From the IMG/VR virus record IMGVR_UViG_2609459792_000007: a DNA stretch of 64,000 nucleotides. One strand, written 5' to 3'. This DNA is from a virus (taxonomy: Duplodnaviria; Heunggongvirae; Uroviricota; Caudoviricetes). The position numbers were made by a program, and so were the translations under genes. The notes under the pieces were generated by a model. That model was given only the letters and a program-made list of their open reading frames with translations. It ran no database searches and had not been told where the DNA came from. This document shows positions 110-62,735 of this stretch, piece by piece (the stretch's first letter is position 1; each line of letters opens with the position of its first letter).

Positions 110-257
110 GTTAACAGCCATTGATTCTCGCCTAAAAATTCTAAGGCAGCACCTACCATTTAACCTTTACACAGCAGCCGTAGGCATTTAGGCTATATCA
201 CATATAAGAAAACAAGTTGTTTCAGACAATAATAATAGACGCAAAGGGAACTCTCCA

Positions 258-3128: not shown

Positions 3129-3171
3129 CTAATACTAGAAAACAATTTGTTTAAAAAACAAAGGAAAGCAC

Positions 3172-10081: not shown

Positions 10082-10156
10082 GATGGTGTAGCTCAGCGGT
10101 AGAGCAGTTGGCTGTTAACCAACTGGTCGGTGGTTCGAATCCACCCACCATCGCCA
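10082..10156 (+). tRNA. tRNA-Asn (anticodon GTT)
   Basis: Hand-folded cloverleaf: acceptor gatggtg/caccatc, D-stem gctc/gagc, anticodon stem gttgg/ccaac with loop ctGTTaa, T-arm ggtgg-ttcgaat-ccacc, CCA end. Confidence 0.85.
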
Positions 10157-10161
10157 ATTTA

Positions 10162-10248
10162 GGGGAGTTAGTCCGTAGAGGTAGCGGGGTAGACTGTAAA
10201 TCTACTGTCATGGAGACTCGGGTGGTTCGACTCCATCACTCCCCACCA
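10162..10248 (+). tRNA. tRNA-Tyr (anticodon GTA), long variable arm
   Basis: Acceptor ggggagt/actcccc, anticodon stem gtaga/tctac with loop ctGTAaa, T-arm ggtgg-ttcgact-ccatc, CCA; D-arm not cleanly canonical. Confidence 0.6.
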
Positions 10249-10252
10249 AATT

Positions 10253-26043: not shown

Positions 26044-26066
26044 GGCGTCCAGTTGGACGCCGTTTT
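26044..26066 (+). terminator. Terminator after SPFH gene
   Basis: ggcgtcc-agtt-ggacgcc hairpin plus T-run. Confidence 0.6.
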
Positions 26067-26120
26067 ATTCTCGTTATTATCACATACAAGAAAACAATTT
26101 GTTAAAAGGTAAAGTTAATT

Positions 26121-26945
26121 ATGCCCAACCACATTACAAACGAAATCCGAGTCATAGGTGGTACAAATAAACAACGCTTAGATTTCATACGTGCCATAAC
26201 TAACAAAAAAGGTCTAATTGACTTTAATACCATTTGCAGACGTCCGAAAAGTATAGAAATGGAAGAAAACAATCATATCAGGCGCATGGCCTCTGCAATG
26301 GCGGGCGAAACAGTTTACGACTACATGTTCGGTGAATTAAAGACTCCAGAACAGGTCGAATTAGCTATGCGTGAATCTGGAATGACACGCAAGGAAATTC
26401 GCAAAATCAAAGAGCAGGCTCTTATGCGGCTTGAGAATTATCGTCGCTATGGCTATTACTCATGGTTTGACTGGTCGCGAGCTAATTGGGGAACAAAATG
26501 GAATGCCTACAACATCGAAATGCCCGTAAAACGTATCCCTACACGTATTAAGTACGGCCATAATTTCCGCCATACACACATTCGAGCATATGCAAAACGA
26601 ATCTATAAAAAACGTCTTGCAAGACATGCCGCAACTGGTGGTGAGTTGGTGATTCGCTTTGAAACAGCCTGGTCTATGCCAAAACCAATTTATCAAGCGA
26701 TGGCTAGAAAGTTCCCGCACCTTGAGTTTGTAATACGTTATGCAGACGAAGACTTCGGCAATAACTGCGGATTCATTTTACTTCGCAACGGCAAATGGGA
26801 ATATGACTACATTGCACCGGCGAATAACGAACAATCGTCAGAAGAAAAAATCAAATGGCGCAAGTTCGCCTTTGAGTTATGTTGTCCTGGTATCACTCCA
26901 CAAGAATACGGTCTAAATGAAGAATACGAATACGCCGGATATTAA
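26121..26945 (+). CDS. Hypothetical protein (Trp-rich, basic)
   Basis: 274-aa ORF in AT-rich island; no confident family assignment. Confidence 0.45.
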   Translation: MPNHITNEIRVIGGTNKQRLDFIRAITNKKGLIDFNTICRRPKSIEMEENNHIRRMASAMAGETVYDYMFGELKTPEQVELAMRESGMTRKEIRKIKEQALMRLENYRRYGYYSWFDWSRANWGTKWNAYNIEMPVKRIPTRIKYGHNFRHTHIRAYAKRIYKKRLARHAATGGELVIRFETAWSMPKPIYQAMARKFPHLEFVIRYADEDFGNNCGFILLRNGKWEYDYIAPANNEQSSEEKIKWRKFAFELCCPGITPQEYGLNEEYEYAGY

Positions 26946-31015: not shown

Positions 31016-32071
31016 CTATTTGCGAGTCTTTGCCTTGCGCAACTCTTCGAGAAGCGCCAGTTCTTCTTTACTCAACATGACCATTTTGCCTTCTTTTTCG
31101 TCAGGCACAACGTCGATAATGTCATCTTGATTCTCATCTGGGAGGCTATATTCCGTCTCATCATTATCGATTTTTGTTGATATTTGTGCCTGGCGTAACT
31201 TTGGCCGCCTATAGTGGATGACGAAGTAGACCGAGTTTCCGCGCTTAACTTCCGTGTAATCGAGATATCCTATCTCTCGCAGCTGTTCCATAGCCTTTCT
31301 TACCGTCGCATTCTGAGTAATAGTGCGACTTGTCAGATTAAGTCTGGCGCGTAAACGGGCTAGTGATATTGGTGCCGGATCAGGCGGCAAACTTTCAATA
31401 AAAGTATAAAGCGCCTGAGCGGATTCTTTTCTTGAGAGTTCGTTTATAGCCCGGAGTTGCAGAAGAACCTTTTTGTCGAACTGGTAGAGTTCGAAAATCT
31501 TGGGATCTGCTTTCAGTTCGACCGTATCGTGCTTGACACTATATTTTGCCGTTTGCACAAGATGCGTTACGTAAAACTCATCAGAGCCTTTGCTACGGAA
31601 CGAGATGGTATTTGTGGCAATACGGCTTAGCGAACTGTCCAGGCGTTTGCGTAACTTCGCTGATGACCTGGCGGTCGGAATGCCACACAGCCTTACAAAC
31701 TCAACGAACGGCAACGTGACAGTATCGCCAACGACCTTGTGTTTGGCAAACGCGTGGATTATTCCCACCCACGTTTTAAAGTCGTTATCCATATCAAGCC
31801 GAAGGCCAGAGATCCTTATGTCTTCGTACCCTTCGGCTTTTGCCAGAGACAGCTGTTTGAGTTCAGCAGAGGCATCCATAGAGACCATTTGCCCCTTTCT
31901 TCCTCTGGATGTCGATTTCAGCGTCGGAACGAAGAGGCCCAGACGCATCAAAGCAACAGGCTGAACAGTGTTATTAGTGTTAGGAACCAACGTAACAACT
32001 TCGCCTGTCTTTTTATCTGTTTCTGAAAATGCTTCAACGATCGCTATGTTTTTATTGCCGTTTTCGCTCAT
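31016..32071 (-). CDS. repA: RepA/RepE-family iteron-binding replication initiator
   Basis: 351 aa; flanked by iteron arrays on both sides; from memory resembles RepFIB/P1-type RepA (not searched). Confidence 0.75.
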
Positions 32072-32099: not shown

Positions 32100-32240
32100 T
32101 TGGTGGCCTTTGCTGATTACAGTGGATAGTAGCACTCATCACAGCGGTTATCCTACCGTCTATAGTGGTTTTTCTCCTCTCTATAGTGGTTGCTTTGCTC
32201 CCTATAGTGGATTGTTCGCTCTCTATAGTGGATATCGATC
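32100..32240. repeat. Iteron array upstream of repA (origin/promoter-proximal), about 5 copies
   Basis: ttacagtggatag, ctatagtggtttttc, ctatagtggttgc, ctatagtggattg, ctatagtggatat at ~21-22 bp spacing. Confidence 0.8.
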
Positions 32241-32504: not shown

Positions 32505-32715
32505 TGTGCTCTACTCTCTACAGTGGATATATACAGCTCTCCAGAGTGGTTGTTTTACTCTTCATAGCGGTTATTCAGCTCTCTACAGAGGTTTCTTTGC
32601 TCTCCATAGTGGATGGCAACACCCTTTCAGACCAGTAACCGCAACGGCTAGAGGCGATCGGGGATCTCTTTGGATCTTCTATTTGATCTTACTTGGGATC
32701 TCTTATTTGGATCTA
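32505..32715. repeat. Second iteron set plus second GATC cluster
   Basis: ctctacagtggatat, ctccagagtggttg, ttcatagcggttat, ctctacagaggttt, ctccatagtggatgg, then six GATC within 32655-32715. Confidence 0.7.
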
Positions 32716-40646: not shown

Positions 40647-40752
40647 CATATGGTGGGGGATATCCCCACCTTCTCTTTGATTTGTAAGCCTTGTTTAAAC
40701 ATATAAGATAACAACTTGTTTAAACGCACCAAAAAAGAAAAAGGAAAAACAC

Positions 40753-48465: not shown

Positions 48466-48522
48466 GCCTGCTTCTGTATATATAAATAACTACATATTAA
48501 TTATTAATATACGGAAGCAGGC
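48466..48522. repeat. Palindromic ~55-bp element, copy 2 (contains TATAAATA)
   Basis: gcctgcttctgtatatataaata...atatacggaagcagg; matches copy at 2216-2271 including flanking tctggcgtct. Confidence 0.6.
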
Positions 48523-50884: not shown

Positions 50885-50977
50885 CGGTTGTTAGTGCATA
50901 TGCATTGACCGTCTTTTCGTAAGCAATTCATGTAACTAGAAAACAGCTTGTTTTAACAAATAACAAAAGGAAAGCAC

Positions 50978-51561: not shown

Positions 51562-51700
51562 TGACAAGGGCCAAATGGCCCTTGTGTTTCGTTGACCGAA
51601 ATAGAGAGTTTGCACCTTTACGTTTAGCTTGCTCCCCTTTTATGCCACATCACAATAAAGCCAATAAGAAAACAACTTGTTTAAGCATTAGGAAAAACAC

Positions 51701-55074: not shown

Positions 55075-55779
55075 ATGAACAACCTCCAGTTAGAGCATTT
55101 TAACGTCACAGGCCATTCTGATTTTCCTTTCAAGTTTACATTGAAAGGTTATGCAGAGGATGCGGTAGGCCAGATCATTATTGATAAAGGCATCGTTAAG
55201 TTTGAGGGGAATTTTGATGAATCCGCGAAAACATTCATAGACTTCGTTGCCAAACGTTGGAGCGAGCAATGGAAAGACCTGGAAAAGCGCGCTAGTGAGT
55301 TTGATCGGTTCATGGATGCAATGGATACAGCAAAAGAGGCTCTTGCTGCTGGTACTCCGTTAGATCTGGAGTCACTTTTCAACGGCGAAGTGGCCTCTGC
55401 GATGTTCGCCACCATGTTCGCGGGTGAGTTCGTCCGCAGCGGTGCCAAAAACTACCTTGAGCTGGATTACAACGTCCCTGCAATTGGCGATTTCGTCGTT
55501 ACCATCCAACGCAAAGAAGGTAAGACGCCAGGTGAACGCGTCGCAGAGCTTGAGGCCGTTGTGGATCAGCGTAACGGAGAGTGTGACCGTTTGATCAACG
55601 AGCTTCATGCACTTCGGGAAGAAAGAATATGCGCGGGTAGTAATACACGTAATGCAGCGGATATCTACTTCCAGTTAGTTGAGGAATGCCAGATTCCACC
55701 AGGTGGCTCTCTTGTCGATTACGTAAGACATTTAATGGCGGAAGTTAGCTCCAGCCATAAAGATGGTGAGGTGCGCTGA
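55075..55779 (+). CDS. Hypothetical protein
   Basis: 234 aa; conserved cacATG start context. Confidence 0.45.
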   Translation: MNNLQLEHFNVTGHSDFPFKFTLKGYAEDAVGQIIIDKGIVKFEGNFDESAKTFIDFVAKRWSEQWKDLEKRASEFDRFMDAMDTAKEALAAGTPLDLESLFNGEVASAMFATMFAGEFVRSGAKNYLELDYNVPAIGDFVVTIQRKEGKTPGERVAELEAVVDQRNGECDRLINELHALREERICAGSNTRNAADIYFQLVEECQIPPGGSLVDYVRHLMAEVSSSHKDGEVR

Positions 55780-56159
55780 TGTTTGGCATTGACGCACAGC
55801 GTATAGCCGCTTTTGCAAAAAGCCCTCTTGATAATCCCTTGTCTCGTAGTGAGCAAATGGAGCTGGCAAGGCTTTTTCTTCATATTCAAAAACAGTCAGA
55901 CGTTTTCAATAACATGCCTGATCAACCTATTCTGGATGGTCACATCCAGATGGTCATTAACAGTCATGAGAAAGGCTGGGCTGCAATCGTCCCCAGCACA
56001 ATTACATACAAGTTGGCGAAAGAGGTTCAAGAGTTTCGAAAAGCCAGTGTCGAATCGGAGTCTACCAAAGCCGCAATAAACACTCTTATTCGCATGGGGT
56101 TCACATGGACCGGTGGAGCCTACTGGCAAGCACCTCACCCCATTTTATCCGGCAATTAG
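55779..56159 (+). CDS. Hypothetical protein
   Basis: 126-aa ORF overlapping previous stop. Confidence 0.4.
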   Translation: MFGIDAQRIAAFAKSPLDNPLSRSEQMELARLFLHIQKQSDVFNNMPDQPILDGHIQMVINSHEKGWAAIVPSTITYKLAKEVQEFRKASVESESTKAAINTLIRMGFTWTGGAYWQAPHPILSGN

Positions 56160-56278
56160 ACGCTACAAATCCTTCGGCATGAATAAATAAAGGCCATAAG
56201 TTGTGGCCTTAAATAAATTGTTTTCTACCTTTTCTTATTTGTGAAAATAACCACAACTAGAAAACAACGGAGTTAAGA

Positions 56279-56920
56279 ATGTCTAGTATTTCCGAAGCTC
56301 ATATGTTCGCCGCTGGCGCTCATGGTGGCGTTGGTCAGAAAAGAAAATATACCGGCGAAGACTACATCAACCACCCGGTTGCTGTCCGAGAGATTGTTGC
56401 ATTGCATGACGGAACCGTGGAGATGCAAATCGCGGCGCTTCTGCATGATGTGGTCGAAGACACCCATGTAACCATAGAGATGGTTCGTGATCACTTCGGT
56501 GAGCGCGTAGCTGAAATGGTTCAGGCTCTGACCAACATTGCAAGGCCAGAAGACGGCAATCGAATACAGCGTTTCATCATCAATGTCCGGGAGCTGGAGC
56601 AAAATCTCGACATGCAGACGCGCATGATCAAGCTGGCTGACCTGCTCGACAATACCTCTTCTATCGTGAGTCGCGATCCTGAGTTTTCAGCTATCTACCT
56701 TGCAGAGAAAGAGCTGATGCTGGACGTACTTTTTAACGGGAAGGAGATTGGTGCCAACGCTGATGTTGTCGAGTACATGGAGAGGATAGGTATAGAACAC
56801 CCGTTGTTATTAAGCGCAATGGCGAAAGTCACTGAAGGTATTGCGCTTCTGAAACCGGTACACATCAAACGTTATGAAAAACACAAATCGCTGATCTGGA
56901 GCGCGTGGGAGGCTGCATGA
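56279..56920 (+). CDS. HD-domain hydrolase, SpoT/Rel hydrolase-like (small alarmone hydrolase candidate)
   Basis: YINHPVAVREIV...AALLHDVVEDT matches the HD motif of RelA/SpoT hydrolase domains; 213 aa, no synthetase domain. Confidence 0.65.
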   Translation: MSSISEAHMFAAGAHGGVGQKRKYTGEDYINHPVAVREIVALHDGTVEMQIAALLHDVVEDTHVTIEMVRDHFGERVAEMVQALTNIARPEDGNRIQRFIINVRELEQNLDMQTRMIKLADLLDNTSSIVSRDPEFSAIYLAEKELMLDVLFNGKEIGANADVVEYMERIGIEHPLLLSAMAKVTEGIALLKPVHIKRYEKHKSLIWSAWEAA

Positions 56921-57459
56921 AGATCGAAAAAATAGATGTTCTTTCCTTTGTGCTGACGGATCTGGAACGCCTCGATCCGGTTCGAGTGATGATTGAAAAC
57001 TACGAACCTGGTAAGGGAAGAATCACCATCACCTGCTACGGAAAAGCGTGGACTGCGGCTTGGTTTGCTATGGGCGGTGATGATGTGCAGACGTTCATTA
57101 AGCGGGTCAGCAACGAGTATCTAATCGGCTATTTCGACCCTCAACTGCGAAGCACGGTCGACGATGACAACGATGCAAATCTGCTTTTCGTGAAGTCAGA
57201 AATCATAAAGTTACGAAGAGAGAGAGAAATAGACGCTGTACTGGCTCGCGAAATGTGGGACGAGGCGGAAAACGCCGATGACGTAAAAGAAAGCTGCTGC
57301 TGTTTCGGCGTCGGTAACAAACTACTGAATCTCTTTGGTGATGATCCGTGGTATGCCGACTGGCCAACGGTACCAAACCCGAAATACCAGTATCTGGAAC
57401 GCATTGTGAACTCGGTACGTGAAGGGCTGAAAGAGTTAGACAAGTTAGAGGCATCGTAA
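56917..57459 (+). CDS. Hypothetical protein
   Basis: ORF with ATG 56917 overlapping HD gene stop (ATGA). Confidence 0.4.
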   Translation: MKIEKIDVLSFVLTDLERLDPVRVMIENYEPGKGRITITCYGKAWTAAWFAMGGDDVQTFIKRVSNEYLIGYFDPQLRSTVDDDNDANLLFVKSEIIKLRREREIDAVLAREMWDEAENADDVKESCCCFGVGNKLLNLFGDDPWYADWPTVPNPKYQYLERIVNSVREGLKELDKLEAS

Positions 57460-57914
57460 TGAGAGAGAAAATCAAGAACCCGGTCGTCGTATTGTATAAG
57501 CGGGAAACCAGCGATTCTTATGCGGTATCTATCACTGATGGAAGCCAGAACATGCACGATGGTCTGCTAATGGCCTCCGTATCTCCTGATGATTCGGACT
57601 ACCCTTTCGCCACTTTCGCTATGGTTGGTTACTACATGGCTGCCGAAATTGAGAAGTTGCGGGCGCAGAGAGACGCATTAGCGGCGGAGAATGCAGCCCT
57701 GAAAGAATCTGAGCGAGCATTCGATGCGATGTGTGCCGAGGAACACGGAGATAATTGGGTTAGCGAATTAACGGAGACTCCAGCCACCGATGCTTTTCTG
57801 GCTGAAGTACGTGCGCAGGGCGTGGAGATGTTTGCTGAGTGTGCATACACACTTGAACATCATGATCACGCAGTAGCCTTCGCCGCTGATCTTCGCAAAG
57901 GAAATAAACAGTGA
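57459..57914 (+). CDS. Hypothetical protein
   Basis: 151-aa ORF, translationally coupled. Confidence 0.4.
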   Translation: MREKIKNPVVVLYKRETSDSYAVSITDGSQNMHDGLLMASVSPDDSDYPFATFAMVGYYMAAEIEKLRAQRDALAAENAALKESERAFDAMCAEEHGDNWVSELTETPATDAFLAEVRAQGVEMFAECAYTLEHHDHAVAFAADLRKGNKQ

Positions 57915-58477
57915 GTGAGATTTACTACCTGACGTTACGTGAGCGTTATTCACCAAAACCAGCGCCTAAATGCTCTGTTTGTGGCGAGGAAATGTCAATA
58001 CAGCGCATATCTGGAGCACATGTTGTTTATGCCTGTTCCGGTGAGGGTGATGACGGATATTTTAAGATAGGGCGTACTTTTGCAGACGAACATTATGAAA
58101 AATCACGCGTAACAGTAGTTGATGATAGTGATCCCGATGTGATTGCACTGCTGGACGAAATGGATAAAAGACAGCAACACATCCGACGTCTTGAGCAGGA
58201 GAACGTAGAGATGGCCCTAACGCTTGAGAAACTGCGTGTTGAGCTGGAGACCGTTAAACAGCGGGAAAAGGATCTGTTTATGGAAAATGTTCGACTTAAG
58301 TCAGGTATAGCAGGTCTGATACACCTCGGTATTCGATATGCGGATGTCGAAGTCATGAAAATAGCTGGAGATGCCCAGCTTTCTACTCCCTGTACTGACA
58401 GCATCATAAACAGTATTGCATCAGGCGTTTTCACCAAAGAGGGTCAGCATGATGAGAACAGTAGAAGTTCGCGCTGA
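57911..58477 (+). CDS. Hypothetical zinc-ribbon plus coiled-coil protein
   Basis: CSVCGEE...YACSGEGDDGYFK then coiled-coil segment. Confidence 0.4.
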   Translation: MSEIYYLTLRERYSPKPAPKCSVCGEEMSIQRISGAHVVYACSGEGDDGYFKIGRTFADEHYEKSRVTVVDDSDPDVIALLDEMDKRQQHIRRLEQENVEMALTLEKLRVELETVKQREKDLFMENVRLKSGIAGLIHLGIRYADVEVMKIAGDAQLSTPCTDSIINSIASGVFTKEGQHDENSRSSR

Positions 58478-58637
58478 AGATGTAATCCCAGGTGATGTGG
58501 TCATAACATCTAAAGGCAAACGATGTGCGGTTAAATCTTTCTGGATGGAAGGTGACAAAGTGACTCTGTTCGGTACGGATGGTTCCGAAACGGATTATGA
58601 CTACGACGAATTGCTTGTTGTTGAGAGAGCTATCTAA
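58449..58637 (+). CDS. Hypothetical small protein
   Basis: Start moved to ATG 58449 (track start 58416 is TTG). Confidence 0.3.
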   Translation: MMRTVEVRAEDVIPGDVVITSKGKRCAVKSFWMEGDKVTLFGTDGSETDYDYDELLVVERAI

Positions 58638-59305
58638 TGACCACCGTTAACAATAAGAAATGCTACCCAAGCGAGAAATATCTTAATGAGCTGATCACCA
58701 ACATTGAGTTCGCTGCAAGGGCACCAGTTGAAGTCGTGAGAGCGATTGCAGCAGAGCTACAGAAGTACCGTAAGGCCTATGCCAATACAGCCGCAACTAA
58801 GGATGGTTGGATAAGCTGTAGTGAGCAGATGCCTGTAATTGGCGAGCTAAATTGGAGAACTAGTTTTCCTTTGCTGATTACGTGTGAGATCGGCGTTATA
58901 CCTGCTTATTACGGCTTTGTAAGCATTAATGGTGAAAGACATTATGGCTTTATGGAGAGTTTTAAATACGGAGATGAGCACGGCAACCACCCTCAAACTA
59001 ATGAATATGGCTTCATTAGTAATGTCACACACTGGATGCAGCTACCAGAACGCCGCAGGAGTCGAAGAGTGAATAAAGCAGAGTTATTTCAGAAAATATC
59101 GGCTCTCGCGACTGAATGCCACGCTATAGCATCTGAGCTTGATGTTGGCGGTGAACGAACCGAGATGTTCGAAATATACAGTGTGCTGCGCAATCTCTGT
59201 CGGCGTGGCTACGCTACTCAGGTGGGGCGAATGACTAACCCACTACTCTCATCCTGTGATGAGGATGACTCGGATGAGGATGACTCGGATGAGGATGACG
59301 AATGA
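58637..59305 (+). CDS. Hypothetical protein with acidic DEDDSDEDDSDEDDE tail
   Basis: 222 aa; C-terminal Asp/Glu/Ser repeat. Confidence 0.4.
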   Translation: MTTVNNKKCYPSEKYLNELITNIEFAARAPVEVVRAIAAELQKYRKAYANTAATKDGWISCSEQMPVIGELNWRTSFPLLITCEIGVIPAYYGFVSINGERHYGFMESFKYGDEHGNHPQTNEYGFISNVTHWMQLPERRRSRRVNKAELFQKISALATECHAIASELDVGGERTEMFEIYSVLRNLCRRGYATQVGRMTNPLLSSCDEDDSDEDDSDEDDE

Positions 59306-59685
59306 TGCATAAATCAGTAGCCGGTGAGTTTCAGAAGGAAGTCGATAATACCACTGATCTATTGGACGATATTTTAAGCATTCTCGCGCTGCTTGAGGCT
59401 GGCGATTGGTCAGAACATTGCACTAAAACAGAGCTAGGCGGTCGGCTTGAAAGAGAGATTACACGACTGATTAGCGATGCCCAAAATGATTTGTCACCTG
59501 AGCATCTCCCCTGCGATGTAGTCCTTGTGCCAGGGGTGAGGATACACGAAGGCGTCAGAACGAAAACATTATTAACCGCATTACAGAGAAGAGCCGAACT
59601 AAGCTCGCGGATAAAGTTGATGCCATCCAAAATATTTGATGTCGTCAAATTTACGCCATCGCAACATACTGAGAGAGATAAATGA
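59302..59685 (+). CDS. Hypothetical protein
   Basis: 127-aa ORF, translationally coupled. Confidence 0.4.
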   Translation: MMHKSVAGEFQKEVDNTTDLLDDILSILALLEAGDWSEHCTKTELGGRLEREITRLISDAQNDLSPEHLPCDVVLVPGVRIHEGVRTKTLLTALQRRAELSSRIKLMPSKIFDVVKFTPSQHTERDK

Positions 59686-60497
59686 GCACGGTAGCGAAAG
59701 ATCTCACAGAAGATATTCTCAATGAAATTATTGCTGGTGCAAATACCTCGCTTGAGCAACTTCTTGCGTTAGCACTGAGAGCCGAACGTCGAGACAGAAA
59801 TCGTTTTTATGAGCGATTACCAGGGAAGCGACCAGATAGATCGGATGAAGAAGGTTGCGATATAGACTACATGGAGCCTTCAGAGATTTATCAACTTGGT
59901 AAAGATGACGGCTGGAACGCTTATCACGATGCTGTGATGAAGTTGGATGAAAAAGTTAAACCTCTTTCTCGACCGGTAGATCACGGTTTCCGCGATAACT
60001 GCGAATGCTCTAGTTGCCAGACCACGGCCCGTATTTGTTCCGAATTGACAGATAAGTCCAGCCTAATCTACGAAGTTAATGTAGGCGGTAATACATGGGT
60101 CGAATGCACAAGAGCTGCATACGTAAGAGCAAAAGACAAGGGTGAATTAACCAGAGTTGTTACCCATCACCCAAATAATGAGCTTAAAGATCACCAGATT
60201 CGAGAACTAGTGAACGAGTTGCGGCATATTGCGGTTACGTATCACGGAACGCAGCAATTGCGGGAGAAAATTGCCAGAGCAGTGAACAACTCGCTCAAAG
60301 GTGGACAATCCCAACCGAAACGTATACGAATTACACATATAGGTGAAAACGGAACAGAAATCCCCCAATTTTCTGTTGGGGACATCTTTGATGTACATGG
60401 AGAAGAGTTTGGCGAGCCTCACATCACTATGCCTAGTGGCCATGTTTATTGGCTAAGAGCTATGGAGAAATATGGTGATAAATGGGAAGTGTTATGA
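59682..60497 (+). CDS. Hypothetical protein
   Basis: 271-aa ORF. Confidence 0.4.
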   Translation: MSTVAKDLTEDILNEIIAGANTSLEQLLALALRAERRDRNRFYERLPGKRPDRSDEEGCDIDYMEPSEIYQLGKDDGWNAYHDAVMKLDEKVKPLSRPVDHGFRDNCECSSCQTTARICSELTDKSSLIYEVNVGGNTWVECTRAAYVRAKDKGELTRVVTHHPNNELKDHQIRELVNELRHIAVTYHGTQQLREKIARAVNNSLKGGQSQPKRIRITHIGENGTEIPQFSVGDIFDVHGEEFGEPHITMPSGHVYWLRAMEKYGDKWEVL

Positions 60498-60510
60498 GGG
60501 ATGCTAAGTT

Positions 60511-61035
60511 ATGACTAAATTTGGAAAGCTGGAAGCTCATTTGCTAACTCGTAACTACCGCCATGATGTGCATCCATATAGACAGTGGATCGATGAAAGC
60601 GAAGGAGTTGTTACATTCCCTCTATACAGGTTTGATGGGATGTTGGCCGGGTATCAGACATACAGACCAGGCGCTCCTAAGCAGCATAGCAATCCGAAGA
60701 TGGCCCGGTATTTCACACGAGCGCACGGCAGACAGCTACTATGGGGAACCTATCTTCCTTTAAAAGATGGACCGATATGGATAACTGAGTCGATTTTTAA
60801 AAGTGCAGCAGTGCACAACGCGGGCGGAAATTCGTGGGCGCTGTTAGGTTCGACTTTCTCAGCAGGATTACGTCGTCAACTGGCAATGCTGCCGTATGAC
60901 TTTCGCGTAATAGGTGACAATGATGCGGCTGGTGAATCACTTGTGAAGTCTTTCGGAAAAGGTTTTGTGGCCCCGGATCTTGACGAGCTACAACCAAATG
61001 AAGTGTCTCATTTGATTTTTAGCCATAGCCAATAA
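60511..61035 (+). CDS. Toprim-like domain protein
   Basis: ITESIFKSAAV (Glu) followed by GDNDAAG (DxD) in Toprim-like spacing; tentative. Confidence 0.35.
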   Translation: MTKFGKLEAHLLTRNYRHDVHPYRQWIDESEGVVTFPLYRFDGMLAGYQTYRPGAPKQHSNPKMARYFTRAHGRQLLWGTYLPLKDGPIWITESIFKSAAVHNAGGNSWALLGSTFSAGLRRQLAMLPYDFRVIGDNDAAGESLVKSFGKGFVAPDLDELQPNEVSHLIFSHSQ

Positions 61036-61171
61036 GCATCCCTTCTCCATTAAGGCCACTAGTTGTGGCCTTAAACAATTTGTTTTCTACCTTTTCTTGT
61101 TCGAGAAAATAACGTTCCTTTGTCTGGTGCTATGTACCGAACAGTTGCACTGAGTGAGCTTCTTTCATGTA

Positions 61172-61191
61172 TACTGTATGAATGAACAGTA
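61172..61191. promoter_or_regulatory. LexA (SOS) box
   Basis: TACTGTATGAATGAACAGTA = CTGT-N8-ACAG palindrome, 17 bp upstream of the UmuD'-like start. Confidence 0.8.
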
Positions 61192-61207: not shown

Positions 61208-61597
61208 ATGGGCTTCCCTTCTCCTGCGGCGGATTATGCTGAGAGCCGTATTTCTCTTGATCAGCAGATAATTAGACATCCTTCAGCGACCTACTTCATG
61301 AGGGCAGCTGATAGTCATCATCGTGAGGGAATATTACAGGGTGCATTGCTGGTGGTCGATTCCTCACTTACCCCGGTTGATGGTTCTCTGCTTGTATGCG
61401 CTCTGGATGGGGAATATCGCGTAAAAAGATACCGGAAGTATCCACGTCAGCATCTGGAGGATTTAAGAACCGGTAAGAAGGAAGCATTGCCAAAGGATGA
61501 CGATGGGTGCACGGGCAGCAATGCCGTGTTTGGTGTGATCACTCACATTATCAACGACGCAAGAAGTGGCGAGTTTGATGATTGTCCCGTGATGTAG
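61208..61597 (+). CDS. UmuD'-like S24 peptidase-fold protein, pre-truncated, no umuC partner
   Basis: Starts MGFPSPAADYAE (UmuD residues just after the autocleavage site); SATYF..A.DS....GI..GALLVVD; LexA box upstream. Confidence 0.8.
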   Translation: MGFPSPAADYAESRISLDQQIIRHPSATYFMRAADSHHREGILQGALLVVDSSLTPVDGSLLVCALDGEYRVKRYRKYPRQHLEDLRTGKKEALPKDDDGCTGSNAVFGVITHIINDARSGEFDDCPVM

Positions 61598-61608
61598 GAG
61601 AACTGATT

Positions 61609-61633
61609 AGGCGGTGCAATGCACCGCCTTTTT
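61609..61633 (+). terminator. Terminator hairpin at element/chromosome boundary
   Basis: aggcggtgc-aat-gcaccgcct plus T5; ends 2 bp before the apbC stop codon on the opposite strand. Confidence 0.6.
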
Positions 61634-61634
61634 A

Positions 61635-62735
61635 TCACACTGCGCGGAATGCGATTTCGCCAGGTATTACTTCACCTTGCCAATACATTTGGGCAGCAAC
61701 GCGATCTGCGAGGTCACGATAAATAGCCGTAAATTCGCTATCTGGACGACTAATAACGGTTGGTGTTCCGTTATCCAGATCTTCACGAAGAGAGATATGA
61801 AGTGGCATTTGGCCTAACAACTGCGTGTTGTATTTCTCGGCCAGTTTCTCTGCGCCACCGGTGCCAAAAATTGGCTCGTGATGACCGCAGTTACTGCAAA
61901 TATGCACACTCATGTTTTCAACGATACCCAGTACCGGCACTTCGACTTTTTCGAACATCACAATGCCTTTCTTCGCATCGATCAGCGCGATGTCTTGCGG
62001 CGTAGTTACCACAACAGCACCAGTTACAGGAATGTTCTGCGCCAGCGTCAATTGAATATCACCAGTGCCCGGCGGCATATCGAGAACGAGATAGTCCAGA
62101 TCAGGCCACAGTGTTTCCTGCAACATCTGCATCAGCGCCTTGCTGGCCATCGGTCCACGCCACACCATTGCATTGTCGTCGGTGACCAGATAACCAATAG
62201 AGTTGGTTGCCAGGCCATGAGACATGATAGGTGCCATGTGAGTACCGTCCGGTGAGGTTGGACGTTGGTTTTCCGCGCCCAGCATGGTTGGAATTGATGG
62301 ACCATAGATATCGGCATCCAAAATACCAACTTTCGCACCTTCAGCAGCCAACGCCAGTGCCAAGTTTACTGCTGTGGACGATTTGCCTACACCGCCCTTG
62401 CCTGAGCTTACGGCGATAATATTCTTAACGCCATTAATGCCTGGTTGGTTTTTGACGCGCTTAAGCGTGGCAATGTTGTACGACAGCTTCCAGTCAATAG
62501 CCTTTGCGCCAGTGATACGGAGCAGATCACCACTACATTGCTCTTTCAGGTCTTCAAAAGGCTTATTCCACACGAAAGGCATGATTAGTTCGACATGCAG
62601 TGTGTCATCCATCAACGCAACATGGTGTAACGCTTTAAGCGTAGTCAGGTTGTGTTTCAGGGTTGGGTGCTGAAAATTAGCCAGCGTACCGGCTACCATT
62701 GCTCTCAGGGCATCCGGCGATTTGGACTCGCTCAT
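61635..62735 (-). CDS. apbC: Iron-sulfur cluster carrier ATPase ApbC/Mrp
   Basis: Walker A SGKGGVGKSS, C-terminal CSNCGH; near-identical in recalled motifs to enterobacterial Mrp; divergent from metG. Confidence 0.9.
   Translation of the reverse strand: MSESKSPDALRAMVAGTLANFQHPTLKHNLTTLKALHHVALMDDTLHVELIMPFVWNKPFEDLKEQCSGDLLRITGAKAIDWKLSYNIATLKRVKNQPGINGVKNIIAVSSGKGGVGKSSTAVNLALALAAEGAKVGILDADIYGPSIPTMLGAENQRPTSPDGTHMAPIMSHGLATNSIGYLVTDDNAMVWRGPMASKALMQMLQETLWPDLDYLVLDMPPGTGDIQLTLAQNIPVTGAVVVTTPQDIALIDAKKGIVMFEKVEVPVLGIVENMSVHICSNCGHHEPIFGTGGAEKLAEKYNTQLLGQMPLHISLREDLDNGTPTVISRPDSEFTAIYRDLADRVAAQMYWQGEVIPGEIAFRAV

Follow-up and report, generated by a model that had tools for sequence, protein, structure and literature searches.

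The 65-bp segment found twice in the window (the whole 64,000-nucleotide stretch of phage DNA analysed here), at 56187-56251 (copy 1) and 61049-61113 (copy 2), is best read as a transcription terminator coupled to an operator-controlled early promoter, a unit that would double as a recombination joint in an SSU5-like phage-plasmid; we place the probability of this reading at roughly two in three (about 0.68). The segment is duplicated, belongs to a motif family with rigid internal spacing and varied cargo, coincides with breakpoints of homology among related plasmids, and is represented in some of them by a deletion allele. The window itself is 97-98% identical to ~109-kb IncFIB plasmids of E. 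coli and Shigella; among phages, SSU5, Cyrano and PhiR41_1 are related to it. Phage-plasmids of the SSU5 type are widespread among the Enterobacteriaceae and carry resistance and accessory genes, while their transcriptional control is essentially uncharacterised; a search of the literature on SSU5/pHCM2 promoters, repressors and the motif found nothing relevant. The module would supply a promoter/operator consensus for annotating the early regulon of these elements, a bait sequence for their regulator, and a defined joint that could explain the gain, loss and transfer of accessory operons, the SOS-linked humD region included, between phage-plasmid families.

The first-pass annotation had described a duplicated hairpin-plus-motif module at 56183-56260 and 61041-61105, a placement that proved right in location and a few bases off at the boundaries. 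Pairwise alignment bears out the duplication: the two copies align without gaps and are identical at 57 of 65 positions (88%), and they have in common an exact 19-mer, TTGTTTTCTACCTTTTCTT, for which 0.02 chance matches are expected in the window at ≤3 mismatches. Nor is the similarity limited to the hairpin, the outcome that had been named as speaking against a shared module, since it reaches well past that structure, with 36 of the 41 nucleotides on its 3' side identical. The order of parts is a GC-rich hairpin, a 13-bp palindrome (O1), the trinucleotide TCT, an (A/G)CCTTTT box and an extended -10 element of the form TGnGA(A/T)AAT (Table 1).

The genes around both copies are all on the + strand. 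Copy 1 sits between the stop codon of ORF 55779-56159 and a tightly packed accessory operon, here called HD-to-toprim, which contains HD_4 hydrolase, Ead/Ea22 and DUF551 genes and whose last gene encodes a toprim domain according to RefSeq; copy 2 sits between the last stop codon of this operon (61035) and humD. The gene starts that had been placed downstream of the two copies, 56279 (HD_4) and 61208 (Peptidase_S24, HumD/UmuD'-like), were confirmed.

Table 1. Coordinates of the module parts, the neighbouring genes and the related palindromes in the window; regulatory roles are putative.
Feature	Position	Strand	Remarks
Copy 1 hairpin, AAGGCCA TAAGTTG TGGCCTT	56190-56210	+	31 nt past the stop codon of ORF 55779-56159
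Copy 1 O1 palindrome, AAATAAATTGTTT	56211-56223		one mismatch to AAACAAnTTGTTT; putative operator, centre at about -38
Copy 1 box, ACCTTTT	56227-56233	+	consensus (A/G)CCTT(T/A)T; 9 nt 5' of the -10 hexamer
Copy 1 extended -10, TGTGAAAAT	56240-56248	+	TG, n, GAAAAT
Copy 1 O2 left half, TAGAAAACAA	56258-56267	+	followed by RBS GGAG (56269-56272) and ATG (56279)
HD-to-toprim accessory operon	56279-61035	+	tightly packed, between the two copies
Copy 2 hairpin, TTAAGGCCAC TAGTT GTGGCCTTAA	61050-61074	+	15 nt past the stop codon of ORF 60511-61035
Copy 2 O1 palindrome, AAACAATTTGTTT	61073-61085		perfect match
Copy 2 box and -10-like hexamer	61089-61110	+	ACCTTTT (61089-61095) and GAAAAT (61105-61110)
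P1/P7-type humD promoter region	61145-61190	+	TTGCAC ... TATACT; by homology to P1/P7
LexA box, TACTGTATGAATGAACAGTA	61171-61190		CTGT-N8-ACAG at 61174-61189
humD/umuD'-like gene	61208-61597	+	Peptidase_S24, 129 aa
Canonical terminator after humD	61609-61629
AAACAAnTTGTTT site	210-222	+	upstream of the ParA-like gene at 258
Other AAACAAnTTGTTT sites	3140-3152, 13679-13691, 26092-26104, 40709-40721, 50941-50953, 51670-51682

A LexA box accompanies only the second copy, as the annotation had it: a pattern search for CTGT-N8-ACAG finds just two occurrences in the window, one after copy 2 and one at 11620, with none near copy 1, and the record of phage P7 annotates the homologous site as a LexA binding site. 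The homology to P1 begins at the TTGCAC/LexA region, downstream of the module, and the idea that copy 2 serves as humD's own promoter was dropped for that reason; because the P1/P7 homology covers TTGCAC...TATACT and not the module, humD appears to have a LexA-controlled promoter of its own. Elsewhere in the window, a second LexA-box-like site (CTGTTTACTTATACAG, 11620-11635) lies 29 nt upstream of a tyrosine-integrase gene (11664-12767). Directly after humD come the chromosome-type genes apbC/mrp (61635-62735, - strand) and metG (~62893 to the window end, + strand), an arrangement that is kept in relatives, Cyrano included.

The module has many relatives. Searches of three kinds brought together about 57 distinct members of its family in elements of E. 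coli, Salmonella, Klebsiella, Enterobacter and Citrobacter: an exact-word scan of viral contigs filtered on flanking sequence, BLAST of phage and plasmid collections, and nhmmer searches of the fetched loci. The exact 16-mer scan of IMG/VR returned mostly chance matches in unrelated contigs, which were removed by their flanking sequence. Among 5426 complete E. coli genomes, 372 carry the module. The distance from the centre of O1 to the first base of the -10 hexamer is 26 nt in all 44 unique sequences. A second palindrome (O2) is often present downstream, and in 18 of 18 cases it lies 51 bp from O1, a distance of some five helical turns. Part of the set, however, entered it by way of an exact 16-mer and a GA[TA]AATAA filter, so that conservation looks higher there than it is, and the orthologues collected by BLAST and the nhmmer hits correct only partly for this ascertainment. 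Seven orthologous regions upstream of the HD gene, collected by BLAST from E. coli, Salmonella, Enterobacter, Citrobacter and Klebsiella, all retain TG and GAnAAT, and in them the right arm of O1 and the string CAnCnAGAAAA are also invariant; what varies is the flanks, the loop of the hairpin and the box. Across the family the start codon follows the -10 hexamer by ~28-40 nt, and the core of O1, box and TGnGAnAAT precedes at least 12 unrelated N-termini at SSU5, Cyrano, Klebsiella and IMG/VR loci.

It is from such patterns that we infer promoter, operator and terminator activity for the module. The invariant TGnGA(A/T)AAT and its fixed distance to the palindrome and to start codons strongly suggest a promoter, and the architecture fits that of an extended -10 promoter lying between two operators, with a conserved box at about -28 to -22. 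Copy 1 has the TG at -15/-14 and a hexamer whose second base is A and whose sixth is T, the hexamer starting with G and not with T; the module offers no good -35, the best -35-like sequence being TTGTTT at 19-bp spacing. Past the -10 of copy 1 come AACCACAAC, the left half of an O1-type palindrome, GGAG and ATG, and transcription is predicted to start near 56254-56256. A simple sigma-70 scan found no promoter on the + strand of the module; because it requires a -35, such a scan is blind to extended -10 promoters. In copy 2, CG replaces TG before GAAAAT, leaving the hexamer without the extended -10 feature, and unrelated sequence follows the module in place of O2. Because both TG and O2 are missing, copy 2 may be non-functional as a promoter; it is probably a weakened or orphan promoter, and at best a weakened tandem one. 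Other regulatory signals were considered for the same DNA and set aside: a CRP site in copy 1 (56240-56255, TGTGA-N6-CCACA, matching the core at 9 of 10 positions and overlapping the -10) is not conserved in the family and is taken as coincidence, and sigma-28, sigma-54 and IHF consensus sequences do not fit by eye.

The same scan reported one candidate on the - strand of copy 1, which together with a terminator-like site there might be taken for a short minus-strand RNA, transcribed from TTCACA-N17-AACAAT into the hairpin, behind which TTTATTTATT stands on that strand; this is very unlikely, and the idea was dropped, for neither copy 2 (TTCTCG, AACAAA) nor other members of the family retain the hexamers, a U-tract is missing from the - strand of copy 2, no Rfam family matches, and the neighbouring genes and RBS-ATG units are all on the + strand.

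The palindrome is not confined to the module. At ≤1 mismatch, AAACAAnTTGTTT occurs at nine sites in the window, as compared with 0.24 in shuffled sequence, and all nine lie upstream of + strand genes. The seven sites outside the module copies are 25-45 nt upstream of a + strand ATG, each with a -10-like hexamer 10-12 nt upstream of the palindrome; the genes behind them include those for a ParA-like ATPase, a DnaB-like helicase, CobT and a TerB/TciA-like protein, and that for the ribonucleotide reductase small subunit as well. In the nearly identical plasmid NZ_CP034066.1, further family members are found just beyond the position of the window's right end, among them a complete O1-box-GATAAT-O2 unit after metG, units reading TGCGATAAT-N12-AAAACAAnTTGTTT, a unit with O1 and TGTGAAAAT that stands behind a different, canonical terminator (GGCGCGTAAACCGCGCC followed by ATTTTCTTA), and a pair of palindromes where the late operon begins. 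The module promoter is most likely one member of a genome-wide, previously undescribed family of operator-bearing promoters in SSU5-like phage-plasmids. A Pfam search for a protein that might bind the palindrome left the candidate small ORFs with no assignment or only weak helix-turn-helix hits. At 26047-26120 the window also holds a compact version of the design, in which a canonical terminator (GGCGTCCAGTTGGACGCC followed by GTTTTATT), TATTAT, a palindrome and an RBS precede the ATG at 26121; the minus strand of this segment, on which TGTGATAATAAC adjoins the palindrome, matches the module HMM with E=4e-6.

Under the preferred reading, these parts would work together as follows. The hairpin, lying just past the upstream stop codon, would end or stabilise the upstream transcript, and the next ~45 bp would form a sigma-70 extended -10 promoter, TGnGA(A/T)AAT, that lacks a good -35 and has an (A/G)CCTT(T/A)T box at about -28 to -22. 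Copies of AAACAAnTTGTTT would flank this promoter, O1 centred at about -38 and, in complete versions, O2 at about +13, exactly 51 bp away; they are most likely operators for a putative dimeric regulator encoded by the element. That regulator would probably be a repressor that silences the early and accessory operons while the element is a plasmid prophage. Copy 1 would drive the HD-to-toprim operon, and copy 2 would terminate it and supply a degenerate promoter upstream of the LexA-controlled promoter of humD. Because a unit of 65-90 bp recurs at several operon boundaries, it could also serve as a joint at which operon-sized blocks are inserted, deleted or exchanged, whether between SSU5-like elements or between these and phages of the P1/P7-like and lambdoid types.

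A broader version of this proposal, which we hold only tentatively, is that O1/O2 and the box form an undescribed global regulatory circuit, the cassette serving also as an exchange joint across families of SSU5, P1 and lambda type. A single element-encoded protein may then co-ordinate dozens of early, accessory and late-operon promoters, and this protein could be a global repressor resembling KorB/ParB or omega, or an activator that replaces recognition of a -35.

For the hairpin, the most telling evidence comes from what replaces it. The stems of the two copies are 7-10 bp long, that of copy 2 having 10 bp and a 5-nt loop, and both fold robustly, in the predicted folds as stems of 9-10 bp, with z-scores of -3.1 (copy 1) and -4.5 (copy 2). 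On the + strand of copy 1 just UU follows the stem and a canonical U-tract is absent, while on the - strand the hairpin is followed by TTTATTTATT and was called terminator-like; a simple terminator scan flagged copy 2 on the + strand and copy 1 only on the - strand. Covariation in the stem amounts to a single pair, C-G changed to U-A by way of U-G, and is not significant, its score being equalled in 163 of 500 shuffles. An Rfam scan of the whole window returned three tRNAs only and no family at the module, and a permissive scan of 56100-56300 gave only hits below threshold, the best scoring 25.6 bits where the cut-off is 55. Elsewhere in the family, the place of the hairpin is taken by unrelated canonical terminators (for example GGCGCGTAAACCGCGCC with ATTTTCTTA, or GACCGCCGTCGCGGTC with TTTTCTTA, the TTTTCTTA tails being of the canonical kind), and many members have no hairpin. 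Because unrelated canonical terminators stand at the identical place, the slot would be that of a transcript-end signal; this, the best single argument, suggests a terminator reading of the hairpin. The copy 1 hairpin is a probable transcript-end hairpin. By the same comparison, hairpin and promoter are separable sub-modules.

Published RNA-seq of strain LF82 bears on both activities. In lysogens, CYRAN_93, the Cyrano gene after the module, stands at log2 2.6-3.8 with a floor of 2.32; at 6 h in macrophages (sample MB6) it reaches 3.65-3.83 as against 4.9-6.0 for the upstream genes CYRAN_91/92, that is, 1.3-2.1 log2 units below them, and the humD homologue CYRAN_98 is high and induced, rising from log2 7.4 to 12.1 (PMC9928086, S1 Table). 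These values agree, weakly and indirectly, with transcription being attenuated across the module and with its promoter being silent in the lysogenic state. The ParA operon has an O site and yet is expressed in Cyrano lysogens, so a simple model of a lysogenic repressor does not fit every site.

Silence of the genes after the module would also be expected if it were a terminator, possibly bidirectional, combined with a binding-site array for a global DNA-binding protein (KorB/ParB-like or nucleoid), with no promoter and with downstream expression by read-through from upstream promoters. The robust folding of the hairpin, the scatter of palindromes over the whole plasmid, which recalls the KorB operators dispersed around IncP plasmids, and the absence of a -35 would suit this explanation. 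We nevertheless consider it rather unlikely, given that the TG and the A2 and T6 of the hexamer are invariant, that the hexamer keeps a fixed distance from unrelated start codons, that versions without a hairpin still carry the -10, and that an upstream terminator would strip the downstream operon of any promoter.

The mobility of the unit is seen most directly in where homology stops. When 671-nt queries centred on each copy were compared by BLAST, many E. coli plasmids matched only positions 1-364 of the copy 1 query, ending at the 3' end of the module, and plasmids of Salmonella, Enterobacter and Citrobacter matched only 291-671, starting from its 5' end. With the copy 2 query, P1-like plasmids matched 74-367 (a remnant of the toprim 3' end plus the module), one record matched from position 303, and most other P1-like and SSU5-like plasmids matched only from 408-421, the humD cassette. 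In all, the breakpoints of homology fall at the two ends of the module in hundreds of plasmids. In pCPE35-IncFIB (NZ_CP075723.1) and two further plasmids, the upstream ORF is followed by one hybrid module and then by humD, and the 4.86-kb operon is missing; the hybrid has the left flank of copy 1 and the sequence of copy 2 from the loop onward, a switch that puts the crossover inside the 7-bp AAGGCCA arm. This allele could have arisen by deletion between the repeats or by insertion at a pre-existing module. In Cyrano, copy 1 is identical over 74 nt and then leads into an Eae-like gene where the window has the HD gene, and in SSU5 an insertion of ydfZ and a LexA-box gene splits a module at O1, with O1 copies on both sides. 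The gene inside the split module, SSU5_103 (SSU5 10370-10470), has its own LexA box, CTGTTTATATATACAG, and an adjoining palindrome, AAACAAATTGTTT, and is a second SOS-controlled small gene in that accessory region.

Traces of the module also extend to other phage types. In P7, some P1 variants and SJ46 it lies beside IS903, together with a truncated 3' end of toprim, and its palindrome or box has partly decayed; in the lambdoid phage ev099 and at ~109 chromosomal prophage sites a strongly decayed module occupies the ea region. The copies in these foreign backgrounds (P7, ev099) are decayed in O1 and the -10, which is consistent with a function that needs a factor of the SSU5 type.

Taken with the presence of the core before so many unrelated genes, which the annotation had proposed to look for in related genomes, the breakpoints, the hybrid allele and the copies in P1/P7-like and lambdoid phages are direct evidence of portability. 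The earlier view of the repeat as a portable terminator-promoter cassette is thereby supported by comparison, with four refinements: its sub-modules are separable; it would be an operator-bearing member of a family; copy 2 looks degenerate and humD would have its own SOS promoter; and the hairpin is poor in U-tract. On the same comparative grounds, a block the size of an operon is polymorphic for presence and absence, and the two copies form its joints.

Recombination could, of course, be all there is to it. The copies might be a scar or linker with no regulatory role, homology left over from insertion of the HD-to-toprim operon and conserved in appearance because the event was recent, and the single-hybrid-copy allele, the location of the breakpoints and the apparent degeneracy of copy 2 would all accord with this. 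Such a scar is quite unlikely, we think: the core is 80-90% identical across genera and stands before many genes with invariant spacing, an invariant TGnGAnAAT and a fixed distance to the ATG, and the decay of O1 and the -10 in P7 and ev099 suggests that constraint operates only in SSU5-like hosts. There is very little to recommend the view that a site-specific recombinase moves gene cassettes at the element, which would then be attC-like or a secondary att site: an imperfect palindrome at cassette boundaries, the presence/absence alleles, the SSU5 insertion flanked by O1 copies and the integrase encoded in the window would suit it, but the breakpoints vary (5' end, 3' end, hairpin arm, O1), as is more readily expected of homology-driven or illegitimate exchange than of a single, fixed point of crossover, attC-type core sites (RYYYAAC / GTTRRRY) are not visible on reading the sequence, and the motif family keeps promoter geometry throughout the genome. 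The attC and MITE models were rejected on similar grounds, reading of the sequence having shown neither an RYYYAAC/GTTRRRY pair at the ends nor any terminal inverted repeat or duplication.

As an element type the module is familiar, mixing features of morons, boundary sequences and dispersed operators, and it overturns no concept. Lambdoid morons, in the account of Juhala and Hendrix, are reportedly autonomous transcription units, accessory genes with their own promoter and terminator, and classical morons are expressed from the prophage. Similarly, genes of the ea-region type (Ead/Ea22, DUF551 and HD hydrolase) are bracketed here by a promoter-like element and a hairpin, and the HD-to-toprim block is present or absent between otherwise collinear genomes; unlike a moron, however, the repeated unit is an intergenic cassette with element-specific operators that brackets an operon of about ten genes, and CYRAN_93, which follows the module, is silent in the lysogen, where a moron would be expressed. 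Susskind and Botstein on modular evolution, and Clark et al. on HK620, are said to have described conserved boundary sequences at the junctions of lambdoid mosaics. The module is likewise short, conserved and intergenic, lying exactly at breakpoints between a stop codon and the next start, but it differs from boundary sequences in occurring in three unrelated phage types (SSU5-like, P1/P7-like and lambdoid) and in its constrained internal promoter/operator architecture.

The promoter itself resembles the extended -10 sigma-70 promoters of E. coli, TGnTATAAT, in having TG one base before a hexamer with A2 and T6 and in having no usable -35, and departs from them in its hexamer, GA(T/A)AAT with a conserved initial G, and in the (A/G)CCTT(T/A)T box. 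This box recalls activator-dependent phage promoters such as the MotA-box middle promoters of T4, by analogy only. The operators of P1 C1 and the 13-bp OB palindromes of IncP KorB form dispersed networks, and the present sites are like them in being a short operator, here a 13-bp palindrome of the form 6+1+6, repeated at many promoters around a replicon; some of the palindromes are centred near -38/-40, as are class I KorB sites. The sequence of the palindrome is unrelated to those of the known networks, and the network described here is a predicted one.

Several other features of the window deserve mention. A second palindromic family, ATAAGTAnnTACTTAT, has 25 matches at ≤3 mismatches as compared with 2.6 expected and lies upstream of many + strand operons (sites include 9313, 15837, 21419, 24943, 33582, 38266, 42983, 47819 and 55013), and a related sequence, GGTAAGTGCTTACC, occupies 13181-13194 in a divergent region beside an HTH repressor-like gene (12762-13148, - strand) that is a homologue of Cyrano CYRAN_45; it is possible that the prophage repressor uses these motifs as dispersed operators. 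Two clusters of 21-bp iterons (..CTATAGTGG..), at 32139-32231 and 32541-32612, lie beside a Rep3-type initiator gene (31016-32071, - strand) and constitute, as judged from this arrangement, the plasmid replication origin. A 56-nt long-stem palindrome, GCCTGCTTCTGTATATAT...ATATACGGAAGCAGG, is present in two copies of 82% identity (2216-2271 and 48466-48521), with a third just upstream of the late operon in NZ_CP034066.1. Three tandem tRNA genes are located at 10082-10325, and a highly stereotyped translation start, AAGGAAAAACACATG, is common to at least eight genes (4576, 20956, 21505, 29470, 33696, 40735, 51683 and 55057).
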